From an uncultured virus (IMG/VR IMGVR_UViG_3300025617_000008) (lineage: Duplodnaviria; Heunggongvirae; Uroviricota; Caudoviricetes): 64,000 bases of DNA. Position numbers and translations under genes: made by a program. The notes beneath the pieces were generated by a model. The model was not told the origin of the DNA. It searched no databases and saw nothing but the letters and a program-made list of their open reading frames with translations. Shown piece after piece: positions 5,365 through 60,877 of this stretch (within the stretch, counting starts at the first letter, position 1; each line of letters starts with the position of its first letter). Where the stretch lies: the IMG/VR virus record IMGVR_UViG_3300025617_000008; one strand, written 5' to 3'.

Positions 5365-8034
5365 ATGAGTTATGTAGATGCTTTCTACAATCGTGATACC
5401 GATATTATTAATGTAGTCGAACGAGACACTAACGGTAAACGTCAATTTAAAGAATACCCCGCAAGATATCTATTTTATTATGCTGACCCTAGAGGTAAGT
5501 ATCAAAGCATTTATGGTGATGCTCTTAATCGAGTAACTTGTAAAAATGTAAAAGATTTCCATAAAGAACAAAAAATCTATAGTAACAAAAAACTATTTGA
5601 AAGTGACATTAATCCTATTTTTAGATGTTTAGAGGACAATTATCTTAACCAAGATCCGCCTAAACTAAATGTTGCGTTTTTCGATATTGAGGTCGACTTT
5701 GATCCTGAGCGTGGCTATGCTAGTCCGGAAGATGCGTTTATGCCTATCACTTCTATTGCTATTCATTTACAATGGCTAGATACTTTGGTATGTTTTGCTA
5801 TTCCGCCTAAGACTATGAATATGGAAGAAGCACAGAAAGCAATTGAAGGAATCCCTGATACTTATTTGTTCGACTCAGAAGCAGACTTGTTGGATGCGTT
5901 TTTAGATTTGATTCAAGATGCTGATATCTTAACTGGTTGGAACAGCGAAGGCTTTGATATTCCATATACTGTTAACCGTGTTATCAAAGTATTAAGCAAA
6001 GAAGATACAAGACGTTTCTGCTTATGGGATCAATTACCTAAGAAACGTGAGTTTGAAAAGTTCGGACGTAAGAGTGTTACTTACGACTTTATAGGTCGTG
6101 TACACTTAGACAGTTTAGAACTGTATCGCAAATATACTTATGAAGAACGTCACACATATCGATTAGACGCTATTGGCGAGCAAGAGATTGGTGAGAATAA
6201 AACTGTATATGAGGGTACCCTTGATCAGCTATACAACAACGACTTTAGAACATTTATTGAATATAACAGACAAGATACTGCTCTGCTAGATAAACTAGAT
6301 AAAAAACTAAAATTCCTCGATCTTGCTAATACTGTTGCGCATGAAAACACTGTACTACTACAGACCACAATGGGTGCTGTTGCTGTGACAGAGCAAGGTA
6401 TTATTAACGAAGCACACAGACGTGGTTTTATTGTTCCTAACCGTATTAGGCGAGAGCCTGGCAGTGAGCCTGCGGCAGGTGCGTATGTTGCGTATCCTAA
6501 AAAAGGCATTCACGAATGGATTGGATCCGTTGATATTAACTCACTGTATCCTAGTGCTATTCGTGCGCTGAATATGGGGCCTGAAACTATTGTAGGGCAA
6601 CTACGTCAAGACTATACAAAGAACTTTATTGACGAGCAGATGGTTCGTAATAAGAAATCCTTTGCCGCGGCATGGGAAGGACAGTTCGGAAGTTTAGAAT
6701 ATGAACTGGTCATGGAAAAGAATGTCGCTAAAGAAATTATTATCGATTGGGAAGATGGAAATACTGATACACTTACAGGAGCACAAATCTATGATCTAAT
6801 CTTTGAAAGTAATCAGCCGTGGATGCTTAGTGCTAACGGTACTATCTTTACCTATGAAAAAGAAGGTATTATTCCAGGTCTGCTAAAGCGTTGGTATGCT
6901 GAACGTAAAGAGATGCAAGCTAAACTTAAAGAAGCAAAAGATGCTGAGAATAACATTCAAATTGAGTACTGGGATAAGCGACAGCTGGTTAAAAAGATTA
7001 ACTTGAACAGTTTGTATGGTGCTATTCTAAATCCAGGTTGTAGGTTCTTTGATAATAGAATTGGGCAGAGTACTACACTAACAGGTAGAACTATTGTAAA
7101 GCATATGGCTAGTAAGATTAATGAAATCATTACTGGTGAATATGATTACAAAGGTAAAGCAGTTATCTATGGTGATACTGACTCTTGCTACTTTAGTGCT
7201 TATAATATCCTAAAATCCGAAATTGAAAAAGGACAACTGCCTTGGGACAAAGACAGCGTTGTTAAATTGTATGATCAGATTGCTGATGATGCGTCAGCAA
7301 GTTTTCCTAAAATGATGCTAGACAAGTTTCATTGTCCAAAAACAAGAGGCGATGTTATTGCGGCTGGCCGTGAAGTTGTAGCGTCAAGTGGATTGTTTAT
7401 TACTAAAAAACGTTATGCTGTTCTTTATTATGATATGGAGGGTTTCCGTGTTGACGTAGATGGTAAGCCAGGTAAAATTAAAGCAATGGGTTTGGATCTA
7501 AAACGTTCAGATACACCTGTTGTTATTCAAGATTTTCTAAAAGAAGTTTTAGAAAAAGTACTAGACGGTAAGCCAAAAGAAGAAGTACTAGATTACATTA
7601 GCGAATTTAGAACTGAGTTTCACGGGCGAGCTGGTTGGGAGAAAGGTTCTCCAAAACGTGCTAATAAGATTACTGAATATCAAGCAAAGGAAAAGAAATT
7701 AGGAAAAGCAAATATGCCGGGACACGTTCGTGCTTCTATTAATTGGAATACACTAAAACGTATGAACGGTGACAAATACTCGCAAACTATTACAGACGGT
7801 GCTAAGGTTATTGTTTGTAAAGTTAAAGATAATCCTATGGGATTTACTAGTGTTGCGTATCCGGTAGATGAACTAAGATTGCCGGAATGGTTTAAAGATT
7901 TACCATTCGATGACGCTACTATGGAAACTACTGTTATCGATGAAAAACTTGGAAACTTAATCGGTGTTTTGGATTGGGATATTTCATCCACAAGACAAGA
8001 CAATACTTTCAACAATTTGTTTGATTTTGAATAA
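5365..8034 (+). CDS. Family B DNA polymerase (T4 gp43-like)
   Basis: Exo I FFDIEV, Exo II GWNSEGFDIPY, Exo III YNRQD; pol motifs SVDINSLYPS, KKINLNSLYG, YGDTDS, KKRY. Confidence 0.97.
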   Translation: MSYVDAFYNRDTDIINVVERDTNGKRQFKEYPARYLFYYADPRGKYQSIYGDALNRVTCKNVKDFHKEQKIYSNKKLFESDINPIFRCLEDNYLNQDPPKLNVAFFDIEVDFDPERGYASPEDAFMPITSIAIHLQWLDTLVCFAIPPKTMNMEEAQKAIEGIPDTYLFDSEADLLDAFLDLIQDADILTGWNSEGFDIPYTVNRVIKVLSKEDTRRFCLWDQLPKKREFEKFGRKSVTYDFIGRVHLDSLELYRKYTYEERHTYRLDAIGEQEIGENKTVYEGTLDQLYNNDFRTFIEYNRQDTALLDKLDKKLKFLDLANTVAHENTVLLQTTMGAVAVTEQGIINEAHRRGFIVPNRIRREPGSEPAAGAYVAYPKKGIHEWIGSVDINSLYPSAIRALNMGPETIVGQLRQDYTKNFIDEQMVRNKKSFAAAWEGQFGSLEYELVMEKNVAKEIIIDWEDGNTDTLTGAQIYDLIFESNQPWMLSANGTIFTYEKEGIIPGLLKRWYAERKEMQAKLKEAKDAENNIQIEYWDKRQLVKKINLNSLYGAILNPGCRFFDNRIGQSTTLTGRTIVKHMASKINEIITGEYDYKGKAVIYGDTDSCYFSAYNILKSEIEKGQLPWDKDSVVKLYDQIADDASASFPKMMLDKFHCPKTRGDVIAAGREVVASSGLFITKKRYAVLYYDMEGFRVDVDGKPGKIKAMGLDLKRSDTPVVIQDFLKEVLEKVLDGKPKEEVLDYISEFRTEFHGRAGWEKGSPKRANKITEYQAKEKKLGKANMPGHVRASINWNTLKRMNGDKYSQTITDGAKVIVCKVKDNPMGFTSVAYPVDELRLPEWFKDLPFDDATMETTVIDEKLGNLIGVLDWDISSTRQDNTFNNLFDFE

Positions 8035-8041
8035 TAAAGTG

Positions 8042-8070
8042 TTGACAAACCTAAATAAACGTACTATAAT
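8042..8070 (+). promoter_or_regulatory. Perfect sigma70 consensus promoter with a late core in its spacer
   Basis: TTGACA-17 nt-TATAAT; TAAATA at 8052-8057. Confidence 0.88.
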
Positions 8071-8097
8071 GTATATTAGAACTATGGAGATACCCAG

Positions 8098-8835
8098 ATG
8101 AAAGACATCCTACAAGACATTGTAAGCCATACACAGAACCTCGGCTTTCTAACAACCGTAAAGGTTACAGGTGAAGAAGAAAGTACTGCTATTTTTTCAA
8201 TGGCAGATGACCGTTCAGTGATCATGGAAGCAACAACTCATAATCCTTATCCGGATATGATTGGCATTTTTGGAATGCCGCAACTTAATAAACTAAAGTA
8301 TTTGTTAGACGGTAGCGAATACAAAGAAGATGCTAAAATTAATATTACAACAGCAGACCGCAACGGCGAAACTATGCCAGTTGGTATTCACTTTGAAAAT
8401 AAAAACGGAGACTTTAAAAACGATTATCGTTTCATGAATATGGAAATTATTAATGAAAAGATGAAAACTGTAAAGTTCCGTGGTGCTAACTGGAACGTAA
8501 CTATTGTTCCTACACTTGCTGGTGTACAACGTATGAACTTCCAAGCAGGTGCTAACCCAGAGCATCCGACATTCCTTGCTAAAACTGATCAAGGTAATCT
8601 TAAATTTATCTTCGGTGACGCAAGTTCACACGCAGGTGAGTTTATTTTTGCTACTGACGTTGAAGGTACATTGGATCGTGGTTGGACTTGGCCTGTTGCT
8701 CCTATCCTTGCTATTCTTAAGATTGCTGATGTTAATAATACTAAGATGAGCTTGAGCAACGATGGTGCTATCCAGATTGAACTAGACAGTGGATTAGCAA
8801 ATTACAAATATATCATTCCAGCACAGGCGGCCTAA
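8098..8835 (+). CDS. Probable DNA sliding clamp (gp45/PCNA-like)
   Basis: 245 aa, directly after the polymerase; alternating beta/alpha pattern and PCNA-like C-terminus GAIQIELDSGLANYKYIIPAQ. Confidence 0.6.
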   Translation: MKDILQDIVSHTQNLGFLTTVKVTGEEESTAIFSMADDRSVIMEATTHNPYPDMIGIFGMPQLNKLKYLLDGSEYKEDAKINITTADRNGETMPVGIHFENKNGDFKNDYRFMNMEIINEKMKTVKFRGANWNVTIVPTLAGVQRMNFQAGANPEHPTFLAKTDQGNLKFIFGDASSHAGEFIFATDVEGTLDRGWTWPVAPILAILKIADVNNTKMSLSNDGAIQIELDSGLANYKYIIPAQAA

Positions 8836-8838
8836 ATA
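8833..8838 (+). promoter_or_regulatory. T4-like late promoter core TAAATA
   Basis: Overlaps the clamp stop codon; 5 nt upstream of ATG 8844, no SD in between. Confidence 0.55.
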
Positions 8839-8843
8839 ATATT

Positions 8844-10358
8844 ATGAAAGCACCAGTTAACTTAACAAAATTACAGAAAGACTACGCAGTGTATTTGCCT
8901 GCTATTAGTACTTTCTATTCAACGTACATATCTAAACAAAGGTATGGAGAATTTGTTCCAGCGGACAGACTACCTAAAGGGTTCGATCGCGGCATTGAAG
9001 GAATGAACTTTTTAAACGCAGAGCAAGGATATTTTGATTACAAATATGGTTTGTATTCTGCGGGACATGCGCAACTTGATCTCGACAAAACTATTAAACA
9101 AGACAGCATGGTTCAAGAACGTGATAGAGAGAATACTGTTATTGTAGGTGACTCAGGTGGTTATCAGATTGGTAAAGGTGTCCTTAAGTTTGACTGGCAT
9201 AATTTTGAAGGGCCTGCGGCTGATAAAACCCGTAGCAACATTCTTAACTGGCTAGAGCTAACAGCAGATTGGTCAATGCTACTTGATGTTCCGACTTGGG
9301 CTAGTGACCATATTCACTCTCCTAAAACAGGACTAAAAAGTTTTGATGATTGTTTAGAAAAAACACTACACAACAACAAATACTTTATTGACAATAGATT
9401 AGGCAACACAAAGTTCTTAAACGTTTTACAAGGTAGCGACTGGGAAACTGCTGATGCTTGGTATCAAGCAGTTAAACATTTACCAACAGAAGGTTGGGCT
9501 ATGGGTGGTAAAAACATGTGTGACATGGAAATTGCCCTAAAACGTATTATTACACTACGTGATGAAAAACTATTAGAAGACCGAGACTGGATGCACTTCT
9601 TGGGTACAGCACAACTAGATTGGAGTTGTTACTTAACTAGCATTCAGCGTCAAGTACGTAAAACAGTTAACGAAAACTTTACAGCATCATTTGACTGTGC
9701 TTCGCCTTTTATTGCTACTGCTCACGGACTTGTGTATACTAACGCACAACATACAAACAAACGCTGGTCAGTTATTATGGACAAAGCACCTGATAATAAA
9801 GGCATTAGTCAACGTTTTGATATTCCGTTTCCATTCGAAAGCGAGATTGGTCGTAGAATGACACAGGGCGATGTATGTTGGTATAAGCCCGGCATGCTTA
9901 ATAAAATAGGTAAGGAAGGTAAAACTTCTTGGGATAGTTTTAGTTACGCATTAATGATGGCACACAATACATATTGTCATATTGTTGCTGTACAACGTGC
10001 TAACAACTTGTCAGATATCGAAACAGCACGTTTTAAACCAGACTGGAAAGCATGGCGTAAGATTAAAGACTCGGACATGAGTGACGAATTTAGTGATTGG
10101 GTACCTCGTAATGTATTGTACTTTGATCGCTTTGTAGAAGAGTTGTTTGCTAGTGAAAAACCGTTTGATATGATTGAGCAAGCAAAACCTATGTTAAACA
10201 ACATGATGGGTATGCGACTCAAAGGCGGTGTAGCGAATAACACATTTAATAACTTGTTCGACGAAGAACAAAAAACAGGTGGTATTGAAGACTTCAACGA
10301 TCCAAACGATGAAGCATTGGCTGAGTTAGAGGAACTATATCACGAACAGGAGGCATAA
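8844..10358 (+). CDS. dpdA: TGT-fold 7-deazaguanine DNA transglycosylase (DpdA-like)
   Basis: DSGGYQ, LDVP, VLQG, GWAMGG, HFLG and SFDCAS motifs in TGT order; clustered with folE, queE and a QueD-paralog. Confidence 0.8.
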   Translation: MKAPVNLTKLQKDYAVYLPAISTFYSTYISKQRYGEFVPADRLPKGFDRGIEGMNFLNAEQGYFDYKYGLYSAGHAQLDLDKTIKQDSMVQERDRENTVIVGDSGGYQIGKGVLKFDWHNFEGPAADKTRSNILNWLELTADWSMLLDVPTWASDHIHSPKTGLKSFDDCLEKTLHNNKYFIDNRLGNTKFLNVLQGSDWETADAWYQAVKHLPTEGWAMGGKNMCDMEIALKRIITLRDEKLLEDRDWMHFLGTAQLDWSCYLTSIQRQVRKTVNENFTASFDCASPFIATAHGLVYTNAQHTNKRWSVIMDKAPDNKGISQRFDIPFPFESEIGRRMTQGDVCWYKPGMLNKIGKEGKTSWDSFSYALMMAHNTYCHIVAVQRANNLSDIETARFKPDWKAWRKIKDSDMSDEFSDWVPRNVLYFDRFVEELFASEKPFDMIEQAKPMLNNMMGMRLKGGVANNTFNNLFDEEQKTGGIEDFNDPNDEALAELEELYHEQEA

Positions 10359-11076: not shown

Positions 11077-11586
11077 ATGGAACAACAAGAAAGTTATCAC
11101 AACTATATGATGAGAAAAATGAAAGAAGACGATTACAAAACTTATATGAGATCAAAGGTAAATAGATCCATATGGGTTACATTCAAAAAAGAGGGAATTC
11201 ACAAATACCCTGCGGCTCTAACAGATCCGAAATTAGCAACAGGAGGTTGGGATGATGTATCGTTTCTTGGTCATCCTCACCGTCATATTTTCCATTTCCG
11301 GGTGCGCATCGAAGTGCGTCACAACGATAGAGATATCGAATTCATCCAGTTCAAAAGATGGCTCGAACGACTCTACTCCGGAGCCAATACAGGACAGGAT
11401 ACTGGAGGAAGTGCGGAACAAGGCACAACCGACAGTGAAGTGCTCCTTTTAGATTACAAATCTTGCGAAATGATCGCTGACGAATTGTATGAAAAGATTT
11501 CAGCAAAATACCCAGGCCGATTTGTTGAAATTGAAGTTGCCGAAGACGGCGAAAACGGCTGTAATATTTTTTACCCTAAACAGTGA
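11077..11586 (+). CDS. QueD/PTPS-fold paralog with LxxxHRHxF motif (DpdL-like)
   Basis: EGIH...FLGHPHRHIFHFRV, DIEF, SCEMIA and VAEDGENG are T-fold hallmarks; lacks the CxxxHGH of canonical QueD. Exact start uncertain. Confidence 0.75.
   Translation: MEQQESYHNYMMRKMKEDDYKTYMRSKVNRSIWVTFKKEGIHKYPAALTDPKLATGGWDDVSFLGHPHRHIFHFRVRIEVRHNDRDIEFIQFKRWLERLYSGANTGQDTGGSAEQGTTDSEVLLLDYKSCEMIADELYEKISAKYPGRFVEIEVAEDGENGCNIFYPKQ
11252..11452 (+). CDS. Putative lipoprotein nested in the +1 frame of the QueD-paralog
   Basis: AGGAGG at 11241-11246; signal peptide MMYRFLVILTVIFSISG-C with lipobox. Confidence 0.55.
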   Translation: MMYRFLVILTVIFSISGCASKCVTTIEISNSSSSKDGSNDSTPEPIQDRILEEVRNKAQPTVKCSF

Positions 11587-11815: not shown

Positions 11816-12862
11816 ATGACTATCTTTATCGTTGACATTGAAGCAGTTGATACACGTTATACTAAACAGTGGAAGGAACATGTTCCTAATCTGCTACGCA
11901 ATGCTACCGGTAAAGAAGTTGTAGTAGTGAGTGGGGGAGAGACGCCTCAGGCTACGACACCTGGGGCGTTCCTCAACTTTGGCGGAACTAATGTTTATAA
12001 ATCAAAACAACTAGAGCAGATCGGTGAAATGTTCTGTAAAGGAGAAGTAAAGGATGGAGATTATTTCCTATATACGGATGCGTGGAACCCAACTGTTATC
12101 CAACTTAAATACATGGCTGAGTTATTGGGCGTTGACATTAGAATCGGTGGCTTATGGCATGCTGGTTCTTATGATCCTGCTGATTTCCTCGGCAGACTAA
12201 TTGGTGATAAACCTTGGGTACGCAATGCTGAACGTTCAATGTATGAATGTTATGATCATAACTTTTTTGCTACAGACTTCCATATTGATCTATTTGAAGA
12301 ATCATTCCGTGAAATTATGGTAGAGCATGAACCTGTAAGAACAGGCTGGCCTATGGAATATTTGCCCGACACACTGGCAATGTATACCGGAATGAAAAAG
12401 AGAGACCTTATTTTATTTCCACATAGAATTGCTCCTGAAAAACAAGTAGACATTTTTCGCGACTTAGCAGAACAACTTCCAGAGTATGAGTTCGTGATAT
12501 GCCAAGAACAACAACTTACAAAGAACGAATATCACAACTTGTTAGGTGAAGCAAAGATGGTGTTCTCAGCTAATCTACAGGAAACACTCGGTATTAGTTG
12601 GTACGAAGGCGCCCTTGTAGATGCTATTCCTATGGTACCTGATAGATTAAGTTATAGCGAAATGGCTATAGATGAATTTAAGTATCCAAGTGAATGGACT
12701 GAATCGTTTGAATCTTACAAAAAAAATAGATCTAAAGTAGTTACTGCTGTAAAAGAGTATATGGAAAATTATGAAAAGTATCTACCTAGCCTAAATAAAC
12801 AAGTAAAACAACTGAAAGATGAATTTTTCGGTTGCTCTAATATGATAAAAGTGTTAAAATAA
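11816..12862 (+). CDS. GT-B fold glycosyltransferase (GT4-like)
   Basis: FPHRIAPEKQ and ETLGISWYEG (Ex7E signature), followed by PMVPDRLSYSEM. Confidence 0.82.
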   Translation: MTIFIVDIEAVDTRYTKQWKEHVPNLLRNATGKEVVVVSGGETPQATTPGAFLNFGGTNVYKSKQLEQIGEMFCKGEVKDGDYFLYTDAWNPTVIQLKYMAELLGVDIRIGGLWHAGSYDPADFLGRLIGDKPWVRNAERSMYECYDHNFFATDFHIDLFEESFREIMVEHEPVRTGWPMEYLPDTLAMYTGMKKRDLILFPHRIAPEKQVDIFRDLAEQLPEYEFVICQEQQLTKNEYHNLLGEAKMVFSANLQETLGISWYEGALVDAIPMVPDRLSYSEMAIDEFKYPSEWTESFESYKKNRSKVVTAVKEYMENYEKYLPSLNKQVKQLKDEFFGCSNMIKVLK

Positions 12863-12906: not shown

Positions 12907-13593
12907 TTGACTAAGTCGACACAAATTAAACAAAAACTAGATGATGCCGGTATCCGTTATTGGGCTGGCGATAACATTTCAGAAGTACTACAAACAGGCG
13001 ATAAAGAAGCACTTATCGAAGAACTTACAGGTAAGTTTGAAAGTGTACTAGATAGCCTTGTTATTGATCGTCACAATGATCCTAACAGCATGGATACAGG
13101 CCGACGTCTTGCTAAAATGTATGTAAACGAGATCATGAGCGGACGCTATGATCCTATTCCAAAAGCAACAGCATTTCCAAACGAAGGCGAAGAAGCATAC
13201 ACAGGCATGCTAGTAGTTCGATCTGAATTACGTAGTGTTTGTTCACATCACCATCAGCCAGTAACAGGGGTAGCATATATTGGTATTATTCCTAATGGTA
13301 AAGTTATAGGACTTTCTAAGTATACACGCATCGCACAATGGTGTGCTAGACGTGGTACACTACAAGAAGAACTTGCCAATGATATTGCTCGAGAAATTGA
13401 AAAGGCAACAGGTGCTAAAAATTTAGGCGTTTATATACAAGCAACACACGGTTGTTGCGAAAATAGAGGTATTATGGCGCATTCAAGTTTAACACAGACC
13501 ACTGTGTTAAAAGGTAGTTTCAAAGAAGACAGTGGAACTAAAAAAGAGTTTATGGATAATATTAAATTACAACAGGAGTTTGCGCCACGATGA
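12907..13593 (+). CDS. folE: GTP cyclohydrolase I
   Basis: SVCSHHHQP, VIGLSKYTR, LQEEL, HGCCENRG; TTG start after GGAGA. Confidence 0.95.
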   Translation: MTKSTQIKQKLDDAGIRYWAGDNISEVLQTGDKEALIEELTGKFESVLDSLVIDRHNDPNSMDTGRRLAKMYVNEIMSGRYDPIPKATAFPNEGEEAYTGMLVVRSELRSVCSHHHQPVTGVAYIGIIPNGKVIGLSKYTRIAQWCARRGTLQEELANDIAREIEKATGAKNLGVYIQATHGCCENRGIMAHSSLTQTTVLKGSFKEDSGTKKEFMDNIKLQQEFAPR

Positions 13594-14755: not shown

Positions 14756-15304
14756 GTGAATATTAAAAAGAAATATTACAGTTGGGCAGATGTAGAACGT
14801 ATGTGTGTCAATATTGTAAATCAAATGTATAAGGATGGTTGGCGTCCTGATTACATTGTAGGCATTACACGAGGCGGTAATGTACCTGCTACTATTATTA
14901 GTAACATGACCGGCATTCGTTGCGAAGCACTTAAGGTAAGTTTGCGTGACGATGATAGCGAAAGCGAAACTAACTGTTGGATGAGCGAAGATGCCTTTGG
15001 TTATGTTCCGAAAGATGAAGATCGTGTTACTGGTGGTCCACTAGAAAAGAAAATACTTATTGTAGACGATATCAACGACACTGGTGCTACGTTTAACTGG
15101 ATTAAGGAAGATTGGCAAAGCATTTGCTTGCCTAATGATCCTAAATGGGGGAACGTGTGGGGCAACAATGTTCGTTTCGCAGTGTTAACAGATAACTTAT
15201 CAAGTGAATTTGATCAATGTGTTAATTATTGTTGCGACACAGTTAACAAAGCCGAGGAAGATGTTTGGCTTGTATACCCTTGGGAAAATGTAGGAGAATA
15301 CTAA
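14756..15304 (+). CDS. Type I phosphoribosyltransferase (xanthine/guanine PRT-like)
   Basis: IVGITRGG, PRPP-binding loop ILIVDDINDTGAT, C-terminal WLVYPWE. Confidence 0.88.
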   Translation: MNIKKKYYSWADVERMCVNIVNQMYKDGWRPDYIVGITRGGNVPATIISNMTGIRCEALKVSLRDDDSESETNCWMSEDAFGYVPKDEDRVTGGPLEKKILIVDDINDTGATFNWIKEDWQSICLPNDPKWGNVWGNNVRFAVLTDNLSSEFDQCVNYCCDTVNKAEEDVWLVYPWENVGEY

Positions 15305-15531
15305 TGTTTGAGTGGGGCAGAATTCACAAATGGGAAGAAAACTACGAGCGTGATATTACAGAAGATGTTCGTACATATATTTGTGAACATTATAGCGTAG
15401 AAGAAATCACAGAACTTACTGAAGAACAAATTACTGAAGTACAAGCATTTCGTGATGAACTAAATGAATATTCAGTAATGCAATGGGGTTTTAGCAATAT
15501 CTATTCAGAATGGGAAATGGAAAATGCGTGA
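15304..15531 (+). CDS. Acidic hypothetical protein
   Basis: AGGAGA RBS and TAATG-coupled start at 15304. Confidence 0.65.
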   Translation: MFEWGRIHKWEENYERDITEDVRTYICEHYSVEEITELTEEQITEVQAFRDELNEYSVMQWGFSNIYSEWEMENA

Positions 15532-15919
15532 CGACTTAATGGTACAACAGCAAGTATCTACTGTATGGCAACATATGGTAGGTGTTATCTGTTTAAATCT
15601 TGTTAACAGGCGTCAAACAAAACCTGTACTTACAGAGTTTTTTAAACGCTGGTCGACACCTGAATCATTACTGTATGCTACACGCAACGAGATTGAAGAT
15701 ATGCTAAAGCCTTTAGGAATGCAACGTGTAAGAGCACAAAGAATCTATCGCATGAGTGAACAGTTTAATGACTGGGATGGTGTTGATGCTACTGACTTAT
15801 GTGGTATTGGTAAGTATGGTAGTGATAGTTATAGGATCTTTTATAAAAATGATATTCCATCAGATGTAGAAGATAAAGAGTTAAAACGTTATATTGAGGA
15901 TAAATTAAATGTCGCATAA
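15524..15919 (+). CDS. HhH-GPD DNA glycosylase, MBD4-like catalytic domain
   Basis: LKPLG, HhH LCGIGKYGSDSYRIF and VEDKELKRY closely follow the MBD4 glycosylase pattern. Confidence 0.82.
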   Translation: MRDDLMVQQQVSTVWQHMVGVICLNLVNRRQTKPVLTEFFKRWSTPESLLYATRNEIEDMLKPLGMQRVRAQRIYRMSEQFNDWDGVDATDLCGIGKYGSDSYRIFYKNDIPSDVEDKELKRYIEDKLNVA

Positions 15920-16160
15920 TATGATTGATCAAATGGTTCCTGTACATTGTACAAACAACGATAAAGAGACAAACGGATATATTGTAAACGTTCGGCTCGA
16001 AAAGTTTATTGATGTAAGTATGAATACAGTAAAAGTACATTTTGATTATGTTGCTAAACACAAACATTATGTAGGAAGAATGGCCGGTTTAGAGTTTACA
16101 GTCAAAGCAAGCGACTTACCAGACGACCCTAATATTAAAACATTTCGGAGAACACGTTAA
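15909..16160 (+). CDS. Hypothetical protein
   Basis: 83 aa, GAGGA RBS, overlaps both neighbours. Confidence 0.65.
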   Translation: MSHNMIDQMVPVHCTNNDKETNGYIVNVRLEKFIDVSMNTVKVHFDYVAKHKHYVGRMAGLEFTVKASDLPDDPNIKTFRRTR

Positions 16161-16525
16161 TGGAATTTAAAGATGTACCGTGGAATGATGTTCTTATTGA
16201 TACTAGAGAGTTCACTGTATTTAAAGACGGCTTCCCAGTAACAGAAGGACATATTCTTTTTGTTCCTAAGTTAGAAGACTGGGATCACTTAGCAAAATGT
16301 TATAAAGCCGCATACGCTTGGGGATACGATTGGGTACAAAAAGGGTATTGCGATGCTTATAATATTGGTCAAAACATTGGCACAGAAGCAGGGCAAACTG
16401 TAGAGTACGCTCATGTACATCTTATTCCCCGTCGCAAAGGCGACATGGATGATCCACGTGGCGGTGTACGTCACGTAATACCAGAAAAAGGCAACTATAG
16501 AAAAGGAGATAGTAATGGCTTATAG
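16160..16525 (+). CDS. HIT family nucleotide hydrolase
   Basis: FPVTEGHILFVPK; AGQTVEYAHVHLIPRRKGD (first triad His replaced by Tyr). Confidence 0.85.
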   Translation: MEFKDVPWNDVLIDTREFTVFKDGFPVTEGHILFVPKLEDWDHLAKCYKAAYAWGYDWVQKGYCDAYNIGQNIGTEAGQTVEYAHVHLIPRRKGDMDDPRGGVRHVIPEKGNYRKGDSNGL

Positions 16526-18337: not shown

Positions 18338-19258
18338 ATGACAATAGCAACTGATAAGAAATATTACTTTAGCGAAATCTTTCACAGTATTCAAGGTGAA
18401 GGACACTATACAGGTGTGCCCACTGCGTGGATACGTTTCTTCTTGTGTAATTTACAGTGTAACGGCTTTGGACAGATCGATCCTACTAATCCTGATACTT
18501 ATGATTTGCCATTTGAGCAATTTGACACAAGCACAGTGAAACGTGTTGAAGATTTGCCTGTATGGGACAAAGGTTGCGATAGTAGTTATACTTGGTCAAA
18601 GAAGTTTAAACACCTGATGGGGCAGAAGACTGCTGTTGAACTATCACATCAAATTATTGATACAATTAGAACAGACAGTAATCCAGATGGGTTGTTTCTA
18701 CATCCTGTTACAGGACAAAGACAGCACTTCTGTGTAACAGGTGGTGAACCTCTAATGAAACACGGTCAAGAAGCATTCATTGGTATCATGACTGAATTTA
18801 AGCGTCTTGGTAATATGCCTGCTAGTGTTACATTTGAAACTAACGGTACACAAGTACTTACACAAGAGTTTAAGGACTTTTGGCACGTTGATAACGAAGT
18901 TACTAAAGATGTTGAGTTGTTCTTTAGTGTATCACCTAAGTTGTGGAGTGTGGCAGGTGAACAGGCAAAGAAAGCAATCAAGCCTGAAACTGTAGCACAG
19001 TACAGAAGTTTAAGTGATAAAGGACAACTAAAATTTGTTGTAGGCAGTGAACAAGAACAATGGGATGAGATGGAAAGTGTTATCTCACAATTTAAGGAGC
19101 ACGATGTGGATTATCCTGTATGGGTTATGCCTGTTGGTGCTAGAGAAGAAGAACAAACAGCAACAGCCGGTGCTGTGGCTAAGATGGCATTTGAACGTGG
19201 ATACAATGTAGCCGCAAGGGTACACGTATACTTGTTTGGTAATGCTATCGGAACATAA
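18338..19258 (+). CDS. queE: 7-carboxy-7-deazaguanine synthase (radical SAM)
   Basis: EIFHSIQGEG, CNLQC...GCDS, VTGGEPL, ETNGT, SVSPKL, LKFVV, RVH. Confidence 0.9.
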   Translation: MTIATDKKYYFSEIFHSIQGEGHYTGVPTAWIRFFLCNLQCNGFGQIDPTNPDTYDLPFEQFDTSTVKRVEDLPVWDKGCDSSYTWSKKFKHLMGQKTAVELSHQIIDTIRTDSNPDGLFLHPVTGQRQHFCVTGGEPLMKHGQEAFIGIMTEFKRLGNMPASVTFETNGTQVLTQEFKDFWHVDNEVTKDVELFFSVSPKLWSVAGEQAKKAIKPETVAQYRSLSDKGQLKFVVGSEQEQWDEMESVISQFKEHDVDYPVWVMPVGAREEEQTATAGAVAKMAFERGYNVAARVHVYLFGNAIGT

Positions 19259-23283: not shown

Positions 23284-23590
23284 AAAAAGTATCCGACCGC
23301 CTAAAAATTTAATTGAAGAATGGCCGGAAGTTTTCGAACACATCTACATGAACAGCATGCCTATTAGGTATATTCACGGTGTTGAGTTAAAGTTTAAAGA
23401 CGGACGTATATGGGAGGTTGACATTACTGAGCAATTACCTTTTGCTGAAGAAAAGGATATAGTTGCTAAGTTAATGTCGGCCCTTAAAGAAGTATCACAA
23501 GAAGTCGAACAAGTAAACTTTAATATTAATGTCAAAAAACTAAAAAACGATATAGAAGATCAAACAAAAAATATTATGAGGGACGCATGA
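23276..23590 (+). CDS. Hypothetical protein
   Basis: 104 aa, GTG start overlapping the upstream gene. Confidence 0.65.
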   Translation: MRKKSIRPPKNLIEEWPEVFEHIYMNSMPIRYIHGVELKFKDGRIWEVDITEQLPFAEEKDIVAKLMSALKEVSQEVEQVNFNINVKKLKNDIEDQTKNIMRDA

Positions 23591-24270
23591 CCAACGTAAA
23601 ACTAGTATCATATTCAAAGCCATCACAAGAGTTTATGGATGACGGTATCATAAACGCACAAGAACTAATTGCGTTTTGTGCTAGAGTAAGTAATCCTAGC
23701 AACCAAATGAACAAGGAAACTAGTGAAAAACTAATCAAATACTTGATCAAACACGCACACTGGTCACCACTTGAAATGGTCAGTGCTTGTTTAGAAATTG
23801 ATACTACTCGCGACATTGCTCATCAAATTGTACGCCATCGTAGTTTTAGTTTCCAAGAGTTTAGTCAGCGTTATGCTGATCCAGCAGAATTTGGTGACCA
23901 ATTTGTGCTACGTGAAGCAAGATTACAAGATACAAAGAATAGACAAAACTCAATTGAATTAGGTACTACACAACAAGAAATGAATCTAATTAACGATTGG
24001 GAATCACAACAACAAAAAGTCATTGATGCCGCAAAAGAAGCATATGAATGGGCCATTGAAAACGGTATTGCTAAAGAACAAGCCCGCGCTGTACTACCAG
24101 AAGGTTGTACTAAAACACGTTTGTATATGAATGGTACACTACGAAGTTGGGTACACTACATCGAACTACGTGGTGCTAATGGTACACAAAAAGAGCATAT
24201 GGACATTGCTCATGCTTGTGCTAATGTTATTTCTGAGATATTTCCATTGGCAAAGGATTTGACTCTTTAA
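23587..24270 (+). CDS. thyX: Flavin-dependent thymidylate synthase
   Basis: HWSPLEM, RHRSFSFQEFSQRY (RHRx7S), EQARAVLP. Confidence 0.96.
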   Translation: MTNVKLVSYSKPSQEFMDDGIINAQELIAFCARVSNPSNQMNKETSEKLIKYLIKHAHWSPLEMVSACLEIDTTRDIAHQIVRHRSFSFQEFSQRYADPAEFGDQFVLREARLQDTKNRQNSIELGTTQQEMNLINDWESQQQKVIDAAKEAYEWAIENGIAKEQARAVLPEGCTKTRLYMNGTLRSWVHYIELRGANGTQKEHMDIAHACANVISEIFPLAKDLTL

Positions 24271-25642
24271 TACAAGTATTATAAAAATCTGTCAATTCGG
24301 GGAACGTTTCTAAAAAATTCGTTCCTCGTCTTTTATCATATTCATCAACAAACTTCCAAAAATCAACTCTGTTTTCCTTTAACCGTTCGCCTGTAAAACG
24401 ATTAGTCTCTACCCATTTAATAACACGCTCCCATTTTGTAACGTCTGTGTCATCGAAATAATGTGTATTGTAATTACGCTTATTCTTTTTTATAAAATCC
24501 AAGCTGTCATACATCACATCCAGGTGCTTATCTTCAAGGATCTGTAAACTTAAATGTTCAGGCTCTAATAAGTACGGAGTGTCTATTGTAAAGCGTTTGT
24601 GTGTAAGGGTGTTGTATTTGCGCTTCCACTCTAAGATCCGCGCTAGTAGACCCTTAAAACGGTGCACAGACATGAAATTAACGGTGATCATGAGTCCGCA
24701 TTGTGCGCTAGGTATCGCTTTCATAAATGTATCAACGTTCCTTTCCCAAAGTTCAATATCCATTCCGCCTCTGATATATTCTGCTTGCTTGCCCCATGTA
24801 TCAATGCTTGTAAATAATTGGAATCGGCCAATCTTTTTCTGCTGTGTTAATACAGTAACTTTGTCAATAAATTTATTAAGATTTCGTTGAGGGACACACA
24901 TATTGGTATTCACACTAAATTCTAAATTTGGATTTGGATTGTTTTCAATATATTCCATTACTTTAAAAACATTACTGCTTAATAGAGGTTCACCTCCTGT
25001 AATTCTAAAAGTACTTAAATTTGGATATACTTCAGGAAACCATTTCCAAAATGCTTCAATGTACGGATTGTCTTTTTCTTTATAAATCCAATCTTTTCTA
25101 TTCTTGTTATTAGCATGATACTGTCTATGATTACGTCTTTGCTGTAATGGATAATCACCAAACTTATTAAACTCGTTTTCCCAAGCACTACTAATACTTG
25201 GAGTACAGTAAGCACATTTCATCTGGCATTCGTTTCCAAAACTAACTTCTAAATACTTAGGAGCAACATTTGCGTCCCACGGCATTGACTTAATTTTTTT
25301 TACTGTACCTTTTTCAATTTCTTCAAATTCAGCACTGCGGAAATGTCTATCACTAAGTTCGCCTACATCTTCCAATGCCCAGCAATAACTACACTCAGGC
25401 GGGCGTTCGTCATTAAGCATCATTTTACGTTGTTCTTTTTTATATTTGCTATTATGTAACGCACTTGGGTTTTCTTTTAATTCTTCTAAACTAACTTTGT
25501 GCATACCTGGATGATAACAACTATGGTTATCACCTGTATGTAAATGAATACTTACATGATTCCACTTTGCTGTACAAAAACCTTTTCCGATTTCTGTAGC
25601 AATTTTTTTATATTTTTTGTTAGGATTAGGTTTCCAGAACAC
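24227..25642 (-). CDS. Radical SAM protein with N-terminal SPASM/twitch-like Cys region
   Basis: CQMKCAYC, ITGGEPLL, NTN, SID; N-terminal CTAKW...SCYH...ECSYCW. Confidence 0.85.
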   Translation of the reverse strand: MFWKPNPNKKYKKIATEIGKGFCTAKWNHVSIHLHTGDNHSCYHPGMHKVSLEELKENPSALHNSKYKKEQRKMMLNDERPPECSYCWALEDVGELSDRHFRSAEFEEIEKGTVKKIKSMPWDANVAPKYLEVSFGNECQMKCAYCTPSISSAWENEFNKFGDYPLQQRRNHRQYHANNKNRKDWIYKEKDNPYIEAFWKWFPEVYPNLSTFRITGGEPLLSSNVFKVMEYIENNPNPNLEFSVNTNMCVPQRNLNKFIDKVTVLTQQKKIGRFQLFTSIDTWGKQAEYIRGGMDIELWERNVDTFMKAIPSAQCGLMITVNFMSVHRFKGLLARILEWKRKYNTLTHKRFTIDTPYLLEPEHLSLQILEDKHLDVMYDSLDFIKKNKRNYNTHYFDDTDVTKWERVIKWVETNRFTGERLKENRVDFWKFVDEYDKRRGTNFLETFPELTDFYNTCIKESNPLPMEISQK

Positions 25643-42491: not shown

Positions 42492-45400
42492 TTATTCGGG
42501 TAGTTCTGTGCTACTATTTTGTAAGAATCTTGCTATAGCGGTAGTTGCTTCGCCTAATGAATTTCCATTAGAAACCGTTGATTCCCCTCGATCGTACCAA
42601 GTTCTGCCTGTTCTCCTAATTACGGTAATACGTGTTCCTGGTGCTACAGGATCTGTTAACCTTATATACTCATTTATGCCATCTACACTAAATTCCGCAT
42701 CGTACTGGACATCACCGTCTGGACTATATGCGGCTTTAGTTGTATCATACATTGTAAACTGATCTTTTCTTAGTCTGCGGCCACCAACAAATAGTTCAAC
42801 GTTATCGCAACGGCCATATCCTTCTGGTATATTGCTATCTGTAAATTCTCCGCCTTTTACTGGAACATATTCTAATGGTCCAATTAATAAACTAGTACCG
42901 TCTGATACAAAATCAACTTTATCTTGTTCATCGTTGTACGGTACTTGTTCAGTAAATCCAGTATCAATTACTTGTGTTCCAGCACTGTGTATTGGTCTAA
43001 TACTTGTGCCCTGGAAACCACGTCTTATATTTTGAAGTTCGTTTCCGGATTTATTTAGATACTGTATTTTCTCTCCATTAATAGTAACAATTCCTGGCTG
43101 TCCTGATCCTGGTGTTGGTAATTTAGAAGCATCGCTGAGATTAATTACAGTGTCGTAATAGTTTAAGTCAGTAGCAAGTGTTACATCAATAATTTGATAT
43201 CTAGAATAATTGTTTCTACTCAATACATCTCTATAAATTTCATAACTTAAAGGAGTATTATACACTTTATTACTATAGACTATTGTTTCGATGATATCTG
43301 ACACAACAGTTGTTTGCTTTATGTACACAGAATCTCCTGCTGGGCCAACATAAAAGTCAATATTTGGTGTTAACCTAGTTCCATTTACATAAACCCAAAC
43401 GCTAGAAATATCTGTAACACTTCTTTGAAGTTTATAGCTGTTTTGATTACCTTGATAAACATCTCTTAAGATATCTACTTCAGTGTATTGTGTAAACCAT
43501 ATAACATCAATATAATCACCATTGGTAATATTAAACAAAGAACTAAATGTAACGTTTCCGTCAATAATTTGATAGTTAATATCTGCTAGATTTTCAATTA
43601 ATACAGTATCTCCAACATTAATATCTTTTGTAATTTCAATTTCATTATCGGCACCGTTAAAAATATAATCAATAGCATTTTCTAATAGTGTACCGTTAAC
43701 AAAAACTCTAATCTGTGTAGGAATAATAGTTCCGCTACTTAATTTTGGATCATCATTTAACTTAATAACAGGTTCGCCATCATAAATTTTATATGTACTG
43801 TCGATAGTTTTAAGTAATGAACCATTATATTCAACAATGACATTAGAATTATCCGACGATCCTAATTGATCATAGAATGAAATTGGATATTCAGTTGTTC
43901 CTGGTGTAAGATTAATTCTTTCCTGATTAATTCTAACAATACTTTCTGATTGTCCGCTTTCTTGTGATAGAACAACAATTTGAATTAGGTCGCCGTTGCC
44001 TGGCGCAACACCAAACTCAACTAAAGTATTATTAGATTCGTTAACAACTCCGTTACTGTTAATAAAGCCAACTGTTGTAGGTTCTCCATTAACTGTAGCA
44101 AACACTCTGCCAGTGTCACTAAACGGAGCTCCTGTTAAGAAATAACGTGTTTGATTATCTCCTGTAAACTCTCTTACATCTAGTAGTTCAACACCGCCAA
44201 CACCTAACGAGAATACTTCAATAATTTCATTAAATCCAGGCGGATTAATAAATCTAACCAAGTTATTTTGATAATCAACTGTATAATCTACTTGATCAAC
44301 TTGTTGTTGTTTGTTAACAAACACAAGTAAACTTGCGTTTTCTAAAATGTGCTGATCAATAGCAAACGTTGAAGTATTATTGTCACCAGTGTAAATTCTT
44401 GAAAGCACAGCTGGAGCACCAAATCTGTCTGTATGGAATACTTTAATGCTCAATGTTTCTAATACTTGCCCAGGCACATTTTCTTCTGGTGCTGGAACTT
44501 GATCAGGACTAATAAATTTCTCGCCATCAATGACAATTTCTTCTGGTAAAATTCCTGTTGCTGTACTATATGGATTAGAACCAAGTAACGTTCCGCCACT
44601 TACTTCAGCGTCAATATAGTTTGCTGACTGTATATCAATAGATCCGTCACTGTCAACAGGACGGAATATTAATGTATCACCGTCAAATATTTCAATGCCT
44701 TCGTCTGGATATGGAATAGTAATAACATTAGTGCTTCCATCTCCAATAAACGTTGGCATAATAGCATTTTCGTTTGTAACCAATGACGGTGTTCCAAAGT
44801 TTGGATCATCCAATCTTGTTGTTGTAGTTTCGCCTTTCCTTCTGATATAGATGTTATATATTTTTCCGCTTTCTGGAACTTCAGGCAATACAAATTCATG
44901 TGTGCTGTCATCAGCGGCAATATAAAAATCTTTAGTATTACTTTCTGCGCTATCCCAACCTTCAGTAAACCAAGGCAACGCATCCCACCCGGCACCAATG
45001 TCAAATGTAGCACCTTGGACAATTACTCCGCCGTAATCCATACCAGTTACTAGTTGTGAGTAATCTGTTGAAATTTCACTGCCATCATCTGGAATTTCTT
45101 TGTCAATACCTAACATTCCGTCAGTTGGCTTATAATATTTGTCTATTCTATTAAGGCTGTCTAGTACTTCATCGTTCTTTTCATATACAACTTTTACTAC
45201 TGAACCTTCAGGTGCCGCAACTAACAGTGTTAAGCGTCCTTTTAGTACAGTAATATCGTTAATTACTTTTGTAAACAACGTAACGGTATAATCACTGCTG
45301 AATAGTTGTTCATCGTCAATAGTAATAACAATAGAACCTTTATCTAGTGTACTTGGATATTTTAAATCAAATGTAGTTGTTCTACCTGTTCCTGTAAATG

Positions 45401-48400
45401 TTTCTGTTTCAATAAATTTCTCAGTATCACTAAACGCCTTAAATGTTGGAGTTTTGCTATATCTGTCAAACTTAATTTTACTATTAAACATTCTAGCTTT
45501 ACTATTGCCGATTGTAGCAACAGCACTAGCACTAAATTGTGTTTGTGTACCGACTCCGCCTACAAGTTCAATAGTAGGAGTGCTTGTATATCCACTACCG
45601 CCATCAAGTAAAACAATTTTAGTAACTTTTCTATTTGAAACGTAAGCTCTAGCTTTTGCTCCAGAGCCGCCACCGCCATTAAATATTACTTGTGGTGGAG
45701 TTGAATATGTGCTACCACTATCAGTCAATGTAATAGCAGTAACTTCATATGTGTAATTGTTAAACCAATTATTCCACGGTTGTAAATCAACTTCTGAATC
45801 ACCTAATTTAACAGGATTAATTGTATTAGTAACAACATCATATTTTGGAGGTAAATCAAAATCAGACACAGTAGTATTTGTGTTATCAAGATTTAGATAC
45901 CTACTGGTATAATTTCTAATCTTTGTTCTATATGGTTTAACTTCTTCAATATATTTTTGATAAGCAGACAAGTTATCATTACGGAAATTTAATTTTTGTT
46001 CTAAGTTTCCTACATTGTGGATAGCATTTAAGAAACTTGTTTTAAATACCCAGTCCACATATAACTGTTCGCTTAATACATAATGAATATTTACAAAGAA
46101 CAGTTTATTCCAATATCCGTCAAGTTCGTCAACAAATACATTATATTTTACAGCATTTAAAATGTTTCTAAATTCTTTAGATGCACTTGTATCATACCTA
46201 TTACTATCGTATGTTTGTGTTTTGTCATAACCTACAGATTCTGTTTCTGTATTATAAAACTTGTTAATAATTTGTATAGTTCCGTTGTTTCTTCCTACAA
46301 GTCTATATTTGTTAACAATAGTAGCTGAACTATCAGAAACACGTTCTAATACTGCCCATCCACCAGAGCCATAATCATCAAGTCTTAATAACTCTCCGTC
46401 ATTAAGTGTAACTTCAGGTTCTGCGTATAAACCAGGCAATGATTGACTAATTCTTGATTCTTCTGAATAACCAATCTCCCACCAGTCTACTGTTTCCCAA
46501 TACTTAGTTGTATCAAATTCCTGTGTTGCTGTTCTATAGAACTGTTGTTCTCTAACGCTCCAAGCATAGATACTCCAGAAACCATTAACTGTACTATCAC
46601 TTTCAACTAGAACGCTGTAAGGTCTAACAATTGGTGTAGCATTTAAATATTTTTTACCTTGATTTGTAACAGTTACGCTGGTAATTCTACCAAAACTATC
46701 AATAGTTGCTTCGGCAGTTGCGCCTTCTCCATCACCTGTAATTGTAATTAACGGCGCTCTTTTATAACCAAAACCACTTTTTACAATTTCAATAGTATTA
46801 ATATGACCGTTAATAATATTAGCAATCAGTGTTGCTTCCTGAATATTAGCTGTTGTTTGAAATACTAATTCTGCTTCAGTATCAATTGTAACATCATAAA
46901 GATTTTTTACAGAACTTGGTTTTTCGTCAATTAAGTTTAGATATTCATAATCAATTTCATCGGCCAACGGAAGTGTAGCAAGAGCATCGTTAATAAATGT
47001 AATAGTTTGTTCTACTGCTACATTTCTATTAACAAAAATAGTCTGTCTTGGACGACTAGCAATTCCGTACTTGTTTTTGTCTGAGAGAGCAGGATCTGGA
47101 ATTTGATTTCCTAGTATATCACTTCCGACTAAACTGTCAATCCATTTTCTTTCTAGATCTTCGTTTGGATCATTTTTGCTTGATTCTGTTGCTAACAAAT
47201 ATTCATTGTGAATTAAATTTAAATTATCATCTGTTTTATAATATTGTATGTTAACGCTAAATTCATCTGAACTTAACAGTGTTTTAAGATTACTAATTGT
47301 AATTTTATCCTTGTCAACAATATAAGCAAACGGTACACCAGCATTCTGTGGATTTTCAATATAATCAGAAACTTGTGATGCCGCTAATGTTTTATCACTA
47401 TTAGCTTCTTGATCAAACTTGTCTTTAACCCAGAAATAATATTTTGTACTAGATATATTTCCTGTTATTGGATTTATATTTTGCTTGACACTATAAACAG
47501 TATCATCGTAAAGAGGAGTTCCTGTTATACTAGGATCATCTTTATTTGTTTTCTGAGCATAGTTACTTGGTGTTAATGTTGATTCTACCCACTGATAAAC
47601 ATCAATAGAGCTTCCTTGGGCATAACTGTTCCAATTGCCATTTCTAAATACAACATCGCCTTGTTCATAAACAAGATATTTTACTTTAGAAGTATCCCAC
47701 CAAATTTGGCCTACTTGTTTTTCGCCCCAGTGTTGGCCTTCATCTTGAGTTGTAAATTCTTCGTTCTCAGACTTACTATAAACAGCAGGATCAAAAGGTG
47801 TTTTATAATCAATATTTTGTTCTACTATTCCTAACAATTTGCCTTTGTAATAATCAATTACATCAATATCAGCAATTTTTGTATAGATATCTTTTTCGTA
47901 TGCCGCTAAGTTTTTAAGTTTAGAAATATCAACTTGAGGAAGTTGTGTTCTAATCGCTTCCCAAGGTTTAACATTTTCTTGCTTTTCAAACTTTTGAATT
48001 CTTCCAATAACAACTTCAGTAAACGCAGGATCAGTCGAAAGATACTTAGGTGAACCTACAATAATAGTGTTATTACTTGTTGCTAGTGATCTACCAAAAT
48101 CTTCATTGTTATTAAGCCCATCTTCAAATACTTCACCTAGTACCCACTTTCCTCCGTATTCATTGAATACAAATACTTTACCTGTAGTGCCCAACGGATC
48201 AGCAAATGTAGTTGTGTATCTGTCAAACTTAGTTTGATCAATATCAAATGTTGCTACATCAAATGTTTGAGCACCTTCAGCGGAAACTGCTAATGTTTTT
48301 CCGTCTGGAGAAATACTAAGATTCGAGCCGAAGCGTTCATCATAGTCATTTGTATTTGATTGTAGCTTTTGCTTAAACACATAACTATTTCCACTCCAAG

Positions 48401-60823: not shown

Positions 60824-60844
60824 CTTTGTCTATGCCCTATATGC

Positions 60845-60850
60845 TATTTA
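60845..60850 (-). promoter_or_regulatory. T4-like late promoter core TAAATA
   Basis: Upstream of gp6; the same - strand motif occurs at 31023-31028, 32851-32856, 37602-37607 and 42489-42494. Confidence 0.6.
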
Positions 60851-60877
60851 CCGTATCTAAAAAACTGCGCATTTTAT

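Follow-up and report, generated by a model that had tools for sequence, protein, structure and literature searches.

The sliding clamp gp45 of phages T4 and RB69 has several clients, gp43, gp55 and gp33, that carry a hydrophobic and acidic C-terminal epitope on a flexible linker. The tail of the T4 DNA polymerase gp43, which contains a Leu-Phe (LF) pair, is a gp45 ligand, and such epitopes are interchangeable. The RB69 clamp has been co-crystallised with the last 11 residues of its polymerase, and a clamp with this fold, being a trimer, has three sites and can hold several clients at once (PMC2988020, a review available in part). A different phage trait is the presence of 7-deazaguanine in DNA, which protects against restriction. 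In the accessible parts of PMC12191111, PMC10516641 and PMC7824862 it is left unexplained how the base-exchange enzyme reaches every phage G and spares host DNA. The two subjects meet in a 64,000-nucleotide stretch of DNA from an uncultured virus (IMG/VR record IMGVR_UViG_3300025617_000008; the whole stretch is called the window here), where a family B DNA polymerase and a candidate DNA guanine transglycosylase of the DpdA3 type share a tail peptide, NTFNNLFD, and the gene for a predicted sliding clamp lies between them.

The window holds a portion of the region for replication and DNA modification in an uncultured jumbo phage, a relative of Pseudomonas phage PA5oct. The match between the two peptides is more than chance. 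The explanation that fits best, and that is probably right, is that the DpdA3-type enzyme rides the phage clamp by means of a polymerase-type peptide, which would couple base modification to replication. The combination of a DpdA3 enzyme with a T4-type clamp-docking peptide appears to be new. Searches of full-text literature returned no link between DpdA and a sliding clamp or replisome in the text portions available; the accessible parts of PMC7824862 do not connect deazaguanine, clamp and phage transglycosylase, and those of PMC10516641, its supplement DS1 included, mention neither clamp nor docking peptide. Unless a minus strand is given, all window genes named below lie on the + strand.

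The shared peptide and its conservation

The polymerase open reading frame (ORF; 5365-8034, 889 aa) ends in ..QDNTFNNLFDFE, with NTFNNLFDFE encoded at 8002-8031 directly before the stop codon. The DpdA-like ORF (8844-10358, 504 aa) contains ..GGVANNTFNNLFDEEQKTGG.., in which NTFNNLFD, encoded at 10239-10262, makes up residues 466-473 and lies 31 residues before the C-terminus. A first-pass annotation made from the letters of this DNA had reported the same peptide in both proteins, and its coordinates and translations are confirmed. It had also noted synonymous codon differences, and these are found as described: 7 of the 8 shared residues have different codons, by the third base throughout, with a nucleotide identity of 17/24. 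The match is therefore kept at the protein level and is not a recent DNA copy. The tail of the DpdA-like protein is Gly-flanked and acidic, as had been claimed (RLKGGVANNTFNNLFDEEQKTGGIEDFNDPNDEALAELEELYHEQEA). One point needs correcting: in this protein the peptide does not stand at the C-terminus, a position (the extreme C-terminus) that it does have in the DpdA-like proteins of three other clades.

Among the window ORFs, the motif is limited to two real genes, those of the polymerase and the DpdA-like protein. The record of the nearest relative (G001) is a 47.6-kb fragment, and specificity was assessed in a complete relative (G002, rated 100%) of 363,943 bp whose DpdA-like protein is 83% identical to that of the window. 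Across its 456 ORFs, the pattern N.[FY]..[LMFH]F within the last 60 residues is again limited to the polymerase and the DpdA-like protein. A stricter scan of PA5oct at the DNA level gives four matches: both genes, one match that an in-frame stop interrupts and one whose ORF runs antisense to an annotated gene. Additional matches to the DNA pattern in PA5oct, G002 and a further genome (G003) were set aside as frames of 19-44 codons or an antisense ORF.

A scan of viral contigs yields 464 relatives, from which 80 loci (67-100% identity) were kept as the clade of the window. The polymerase pattern N.F..[LF]F[DS]F[EDG] is present in all 77 clade polymerases whose C-terminal end lies in the locus, and the clamp gene is present in 78/80 loci. 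The DpdA-like proteins of the clade carry N.[FYSMVN][NSKTF].[LMHF][FY] within their last 55 residues in 80/80 cases. The solid core of this tail motif is the [LM]F pair together with the upstream Asn; one locus has LY. In locus L080 FF replaces LF in both the polymerase and the DpdA-like protein.

Conservation of the motif in DpdA orthologues, a point raised by the first-pass annotation, extends beyond this clade to LF-type tails in five further clades. In PA5oct the polymerase ends in ..AAHFDSLFGW and the DpdA-like protein has ..NSFNSLFDV followed by an acidic tail. In Vibrio phage 2.275.O the peptides occupy the very end of both proteins (polymerase ..NNTDLFDW, DpdA-like ..NNNDLFGW). The nine loci of the P0130 clade pair a polymerase end ..TTF[DN]DLFDF with DpdA-like ends such as ..NNLFDFS and ..SNLFDFD at the extreme C-terminus, and the P0143 clade pairs ..SKAMKLFNY with ..DKAKSLFEF. 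Sinorhizobium phage Phosso has ..TTFNDLFTF in the polymerase and ..KIVEGLF in the DpdA-like protein; here the clamp gene adjoins the polymerase gene and the DpdA-like gene is about 175 kb away. The clades that carry the tail peptide are overall 25-40% identical. The DpdA-like proteins P0129 and P0134 have two LF-type peptides per tail, one internal and one at the extreme C-terminus. No close relatives were found in the scan with the Vibrio phage 2.275.O protein. Scans for the genomic context of family members that lack the tail also returned nothing: P0167 and P0158 (the latter does have a terminal LF) have no matches in viral contigs, and P0174 has none in genome contigs.

The likeness of the two tails within a phage can be compared with that of mismatched pairs. 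With tails anchored on the LF pair and the pair itself left out of the score, matched polymerase and DpdA tails from six clades score 79; permuted pairings have a mean of 25.8 (standard deviation 20.5), and 5/720 permutations reach the observed value. A five-clade version gives 1/120. In the family at large, [LMF]F occurs in the last 7 residues of 29/113 full-length representatives versus 3.4% of control 7-residue windows, and in the last 45 residues of 61/113 versus 20.7% in controls. The terminal LF is thus enriched about 8-fold.

Polymerase, clamp and transglycosylase

The polymerase is a family B enzyme of the T4/RB69 gp43 type. It matches Pfam DNA_pol_B (9.4e-36) and DNA_pol_B_exo1 (2.4e-19) as well as phrog_262 (5.3e-201), and RB69 gp43 chains in the PDB match it at E about 1e-62 with the alignment reaching residue 845 of 889. 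The 44 residues beyond this alignment form a tail of about the length of that of RB69. The T4 gp43 end, ..EEKASLDFLFG, and NTFNNLFDFE belong to one type, hydrophobic and acidic with an LF pair. The window peptide is of T4 type on a gp43 homologue and is therefore read as a clamp ligand, the presumed clamp-binding epitope of the polymerase. The PA5oct polymerase gene (locus L001, 605-5831) is interrupted by a Hef-like homing-endonuclease gene, and the C-terminal peptide is on the second piece (EST35_0313); two metagenomic relatives (L093, L102) likewise have the polymerase gene in two pieces with the peptide on the second.

The gene between the polymerase and the DpdA-like protein (8098-8835) encodes 245 aa in two domains and had been taken for a probable clamp. 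Structure prediction agrees with that assignment. An AlphaFold2 model built from an alignment of 127 relatives has a mean predicted local distance difference test score (pLDDT) of 93.4 and a predicted TM-score of 0.90. A Foldseek search of the PDB with this model returned PCNA or other sliding clamps in 47/47 matches listed (ranks to 50), with E values down to 6.6e-11, TM-scores of 0.6-0.72 and a probability of 1.00; yeast, archaeal and African swine fever virus PCNA are among them, and at least 500 matches have E<=0.001. By fold, as modelled, the protein is a PCNA-like sliding clamp. At the sequence level its sole match is phrog_12062, annotated 'unknown', and it has no Pfam match and no PDB sequence match. 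The clamp gene adjoins the polymerase gene in five other clades too. A clamp loader is encoded in G002 (phrog_168, 1.2e-74) and also in five other genomes.

The 504-aa protein encoded at 8844-10358 is a long DpdA3-type protein with a predicted tRNA-guanine transglycosylase (TGT) fold. Its AlphaFold2 model has a pLDDT of 91.6, and 50/50 matches listed by Foldseek against the PDB are tRNA-guanine transglycosylases (E 4e-8, probability 1.00; TMq 0.40 and TMt 0.52; root-mean-square deviation about 7.6 A), with 189 matches at E<=0.001. An exhaustive search for relatives found 959, of which the alignment took in 106. In this alignment GDSGG[FY]Q, read as GDSGGYQ in the window, is near-invariant, with D103, S104, G105, G106 and Q108 in at least 90% of sequences. 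D284 is invariant in an FDC context, and H374 and N375 are near-invariant. The Asp of DSGG[FY]Q and that of the FDC type presumably correspond to the catalytic residues of TGT. The protein and three orthologues have no match in Pfam (E<=10, TGT PF01702 included) or NCBIfam (E<=1), and the protein has no PHROG match. With tblastn it finds weak matches only (E 0.03-0.07), in phage genes that carry the annotation 'TGT domain-containing protein'.

The nearest relatives with a name come from PA5oct-like Pseudomonas jumbo phages, Vibrio phage 2.275.O and Sinorhizobium phage Phosso, where they are listed as 'hypothetical proteins'. The PA5oct orthologue (EST35_0316, QCG76197.1) is 42% identical over 96% of its length, with conserved synteny. 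In supplement DS1 of a Nucleic Acids Res 2023 paper (PMC10516641, available in part) QCG76197.1 stands in the DpdA3 column, and PA5oct FolE, QueD, QueE and DpdL are listed beside it. The call of a DpdA-like protein made in the first pass is thus upheld by fold, GDSGGYQ, the invariant Asp and an orthologue listed as DpdA3. A profile of the 106 family members finds nothing in phiST (E<=10) or CP220 (E<=1), a loose first pass and a weak negative; Pfam TGT did not find the CP220 DpdA3 gene either. The authors of PMC10516641 linked proteins of the window type with the prototypes by psiBLAST and HHpred, according to the parts available. The window protein belongs to a long, divergent branch.

More distant TGT-like proteins are found in Vibrio phage GR11A (L084, 4629-6218), Pseudomonas phage Lauda (L085, 4857-6227) and Xanthomonas phage PhiXhv-12 (L086, 4626-6332). 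They have long Lys-rich basic tails with no LF peptide, and a sigma-factor gene follows two or three genes downstream of each.

The peptide is carried on a tail predicted to be disordered. The motif is modelled as a short helix (467-472) between segments with pLDDT below 50 (459-466 and 473-487). The linkers vary among orthologues, and F472 is near-invariant in a further alignment (A3). As modelled, this is how short linear docking motifs typically appear. The tail ends in an acidic helix (residues 487-503, ..DEALAELEELYHEQE.., encoded at 10302-10352) with the pattern D-x-x-L-x-E-L-E, in which L492 is invariant and L495 near-invariant in A3. This helix is confined to the clades with an internal LF peptide, those of the window and PA5oct, and is missing where the protein ends with the LF peptide.

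The 7-deazaguanine genes and their surroundings

Downstream of the transglycosylase candidate lie genes predicted to supply its base. The first (11077-11586) encodes a DpdL-like protein, a predicted 7-carboxy-7-deazaguanine decarboxylase that matches phrog_17812 and is 54% identical (E 2e-46) to QCG76199.1 of PA5oct, a protein listed as DpdL in the accessible DS1 of PMC10516641. A GTP cyclohydrolase I (FolE, 12907-13593; Pfam GTP_cyclohydroI 2.6e-40, phrog_2197 3.8e-46) would carry out the first step of 7-deazaguanine synthesis. A QueE-like radical SAM protein (18338-19258; phrog_2076 'QueE-like radical SAM domain', 1.1e-54) is the candidate 7-carboxy-7-deazaguanine synthase. The window ORFs that were scanned include no QueC. 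From this gene set, the base made would be a 7-deazaguanine, possibly the decarboxylated form.

Between the FolE and QueE-like genes lie a phosphoribosyltransferase-domain protein (14756-15304) and a HIT-domain protein (16160-16525), which could together convert a free deazapurine base to a nucleotide. The same block holds a 131-aa protein (15524-15919) that matches HhH-GPD (3.6e-7), the superfamily of base-excision glycosylases. END nucleases, which sense modified bases by means of an inactive EndoIII/HhH domain, act against PA5oct-like phages, according to the accessible text of PMC12191111, and it is conceivable that the HhH-GPD protein is a decoy or accessory. The same preprint, in the part available, describes resistance of PA5oct DNA to five restriction enzymes whose sites contain G.

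A conserved 348-aa neighbour with no family match (11816-12862) is 46% identical (E 5e-99) to a PA5oct gene. It is encoded 1.5 kb downstream of the DpdA3-type gene, and its PA5oct homologue (L001, 8617-9678) lies directly downstream of the DpdA3 gene of that phage. In Vibrio phage 2.275.O a 371-aa gene at the position equivalent to that in L001 occupies the same place after the DpdA-like gene. The ETLGISWYEGAL segment of the 348-aa protein is, in our assumption, reminiscent of GT-B glycosyltransferases. Farther along, a thymidylate-synthase-like gene (23587-24270; phrog_85, 4.2e-74) and a 471-aa radical-SAM protein (24227-25642, minus strand; Pfam 1.3e-8) mark the edge of a nucleotide-metabolism block. 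A giant ORF of 4939 aa (42492-57311, minus strand) lies amid tail-fibre and baseplate genes, and PA5oct has a similarly long gene (49627-61200) in a baseplate context.

Explanations of the shared peptide and known systems

Under clamp docking, the reading that the first-pass annotation had proposed and that the present results support, the phage clamp loader would place the clamp on replicating phage DNA, and the polymerase would hold one clamp subunit through its C-terminal peptide. The transglycosylase would use the matching peptide to dock on a second subunit of that ring, or on clamps that stay behind as the fork moves on, and would swap guanines in the freshly made duplex for the deazaguanine base. 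Binding of the polymerase peptide to the clamp is expected by homology with T4 and RB69, and the same expectation would extend to the DpdA3 copy; the substrate is presumably DNA and the base inserted presumably a deazaguanine. Tethering would concentrate the enzyme locally on phage DNA and give replicating phage DNA preference over that of the host. The complete replacement of G reported for DpdA3 phages, phiST among them (PMC10516641, as far as available), would also become easier to explain. A more ambitious version, which is possible and at present doubtful, is a modification factory for which jumbo phages with T4-type replisomes use their PCNA-like clamp as the platform: every G of nascent phage DNA is exchanged as it is made, self and non-self are set by which clamp is loaded and not by a DNA sequence, and the acidic helix recruits a further partner, for example the base-supplying enzymes.

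Several observations weigh against clamp docking. The clamp shows no similarity to T4 gp45 by BLASTP (best E 0.54), and the T4 binding mode is therefore transferred on fold and polymerase homology only. The PA5oct clamp orthologue (EST35_0314; L001, 5912-6658) is annotated 'structural protein' from electrospray ionisation tandem mass spectrometry (ESI-MS/MS) of virions; an RNase H gene in the same locus also bears an ESI-MS/MS note, with the product name still RNaseH. The peptide is internal in the window and PA5oct clades, at least 31 residues from the end, and T4 epitopes are C-terminal. Inside the window clade, the regular expression behind the DpdA count of 80/80 was fitted after the sequences had been seen, five loci have HF for LF, and the commonest pairing, in 17 loci, is polymerase NTFAKLFDFE with DpdA NISNDLF. 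Exact identity of the two peptides, as in the window, is the exception within the clade. Co-variation of the tails across related phages, which the first-pass annotation had put forward as a check, holds across clades by the permutation count and is weak at the fine scale inside the window clade. Even in the comparison across clades, the PA5oct polymerase and DpdA pair scores 5, below the PA5oct score against the Vibrio tail.

The phiST prototype adds a further point of this kind. According to the available text of PMC10516641, its DpdA3 gene sits between synthesis genes and polymerase genes. The protein (CGPG_00065) has 259 aa and no such tail, and the phage has a Pol III-alpha-like polymerase. 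Since phiST is reported to be fully modified, tethering is not required for complete replacement, nor is it universal in DpdA3. The tail characterises the long branch found in jumbo phages, and DpdA in general does not have it.

The search for further clients points the same way: among the ORFs of G002, none of the other proteins expected to be clamp clients was seen to carry the motif. The clamp loader of that genome ends in SKLFG, an end not kept in PA5oct, Vibrio phage 2.275.O, two other genomes (G005, G006) or Phosso and taken as coincidence; a multi-client 'toolbelt' motif is therefore not demonstrated. Other G002 ORFs with LF-like ends encode structural, lysis, unassigned or poorly conserved proteins. 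A 304-aa protein ending in ..SLGLFNFLKN has no family and no homologue in the five other genomes searched and was dropped. A 339-aa protein ending in ..TASLFRGK, also of no family, was dropped as well; it has matches in 2/5 genomes (48% identity in G003, weak in PA5oct), both stop-interrupted. A protein ending in WSFDF is tail-sheath-like and one with KIFDEIK at its end is spanin-like, and both are unrelated.

The best of the rival explanations keeps the coupling to replication and changes the partner. The shared peptide would dock both proteins on a different replisome component, such as the single-stranded DNA-binding protein, the helicase or primase, or the clamp loader. It draws on the lack of sequence similarity between the clamp and gp45, on the second conserved acidic helix in the tail, which points to more than one partner, and on Phosso, whose DpdA-like gene adjoins primase and DnaB-like helicase genes. 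However, the polymerase is a homologue of gp43, whose tail in T4 and RB69 is a clamp ligand (PMC2988020, in its accessible part). The tail is of the T4 hydrophobic and acidic LF type, and in the clades examined the clamp and polymerase genes are immediate neighbours, including 78/80 window-clade loci. Another partner in place of the clamp is accordingly rather unlikely.

A second alternative moves the modification to an earlier stage. Deazaguanine would enter mainly before replication, as a nucleotide, with the TGT-like protein acting on tRNA or proofreading and the likeness of the tails marginal to bulk modification. The phosphoribosyltransferase and HIT proteins among the deazaguanine genes could make such a nucleotide, and cells infected by CP220, a DpdA3 phage, were found to contain the ADG nucleoside. 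The same source (PMC10516641, in the part available) concludes, on the other side, that DpdA is encoded by all phages whose DNA contains 7-deazaguanine, and it proposes that insertion is post-replicative. It is also hard to see what a tRNA enzyme would gain from a polymerase-like peptide kept in six clades, and this route appears improbable.

Of much the same standing, and slightly harder to accept, is the idea that the peptide binds the clamp as a regulator. The DpdA3-type protein would compete with the polymerase for the clamp, for example as a means of displacing it or of timing late events; alternatively, the tail would inhibit its own enzyme by folding back on it. Competition is physically plausible for a peptide that is the same as that of the polymerase, the acidic helix could mask a DNA-binding surface, and the Lys-rich tails of the distant phage TGT-like proteins show varied tail use in the superfamily. 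Yet trimeric clamps with three sites carry several clients together (PMC2988020, as available), and the conserved catalytic residues and base-synthesis neighbours fit a working modification enzyme. That the similarity has no function at all, being a chance match of low-complexity tails or a trace of old copying between neighbours, is scarcely credible: short tails in which N, D, F and L abound, and genes that are neighbours in most clades, would allow for it, but 7/8 codons differ, the motif is present in 80/80 orthologues and in clades 25-40% identical, it is kept in Phosso despite the gene separation of about 175 kb, the terminal LF is about 8-fold enriched and only 5/720 permutations reach the observed tail similarity.

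If clamp docking by the DpdA3-type enzyme is right, the peptide would be a simple answer to how the enzyme gains access to phage DNA. A terminal LF peptide that matches the polymerase tail would then be a sequence handle by which clamp clients of uncultured phages could be predicted. In E. coli, heterologous tests of DpdA3 were unsuccessful, according to the accessible text of PMC10516641, which suggests that the enzyme may need its own clamp. PA5oct is cultured, has the same arrangement and offers a tractable system.

The locus resembles several described systems in part. Like members of the DpdA3 subfamily, the window protein is a distant TGT-superfamily enzyme encoded near FolE, QueE and DpdL genes. 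It differs from the phiST prototype in being about twice as long (504 vs 259 aa) and in having a disordered, polymerase-like tail. The best structural match to its core is Zymomonas mobilis TGT (PDB 5utj, 1pud), with which it has in common DSGG[FY]Q and the invariant Asp in FDC context. Identity to that enzyme is only 14-17% with a moderate TM-score (0.40 / 0.52), the predicted substrate here is DNA, and the window protein has an extra C-terminal helical region and tail.

With the gp45 clients of T4 and RB69 the locus shares a PCNA-like clamp fold, as predicted, and an acidic LF peptide on a flexible linker, copied onto an unrelated protein. In contrast to gp55 and gp33, the putative second client here is a DNA-modifying enzyme candidate and not a transcription factor, and in two clades its peptide is internal to the tail. 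In eukaryotes and archaea, DNA-modifying and repair enzymes with a PCNA-interacting peptide (PIP) box, such as DNMT1 and UNG2, are brought to new DNA by a clamp peptide in a disordered region. The DpdA3-type enzyme would be the viral counterpart of this PCNA-coupled DNA modification of eukaryotes, from which it differs in enzyme class, in chemistry (base exchange versus methylation or excision), in motif consensus and in belonging to a viral, bacterial system.

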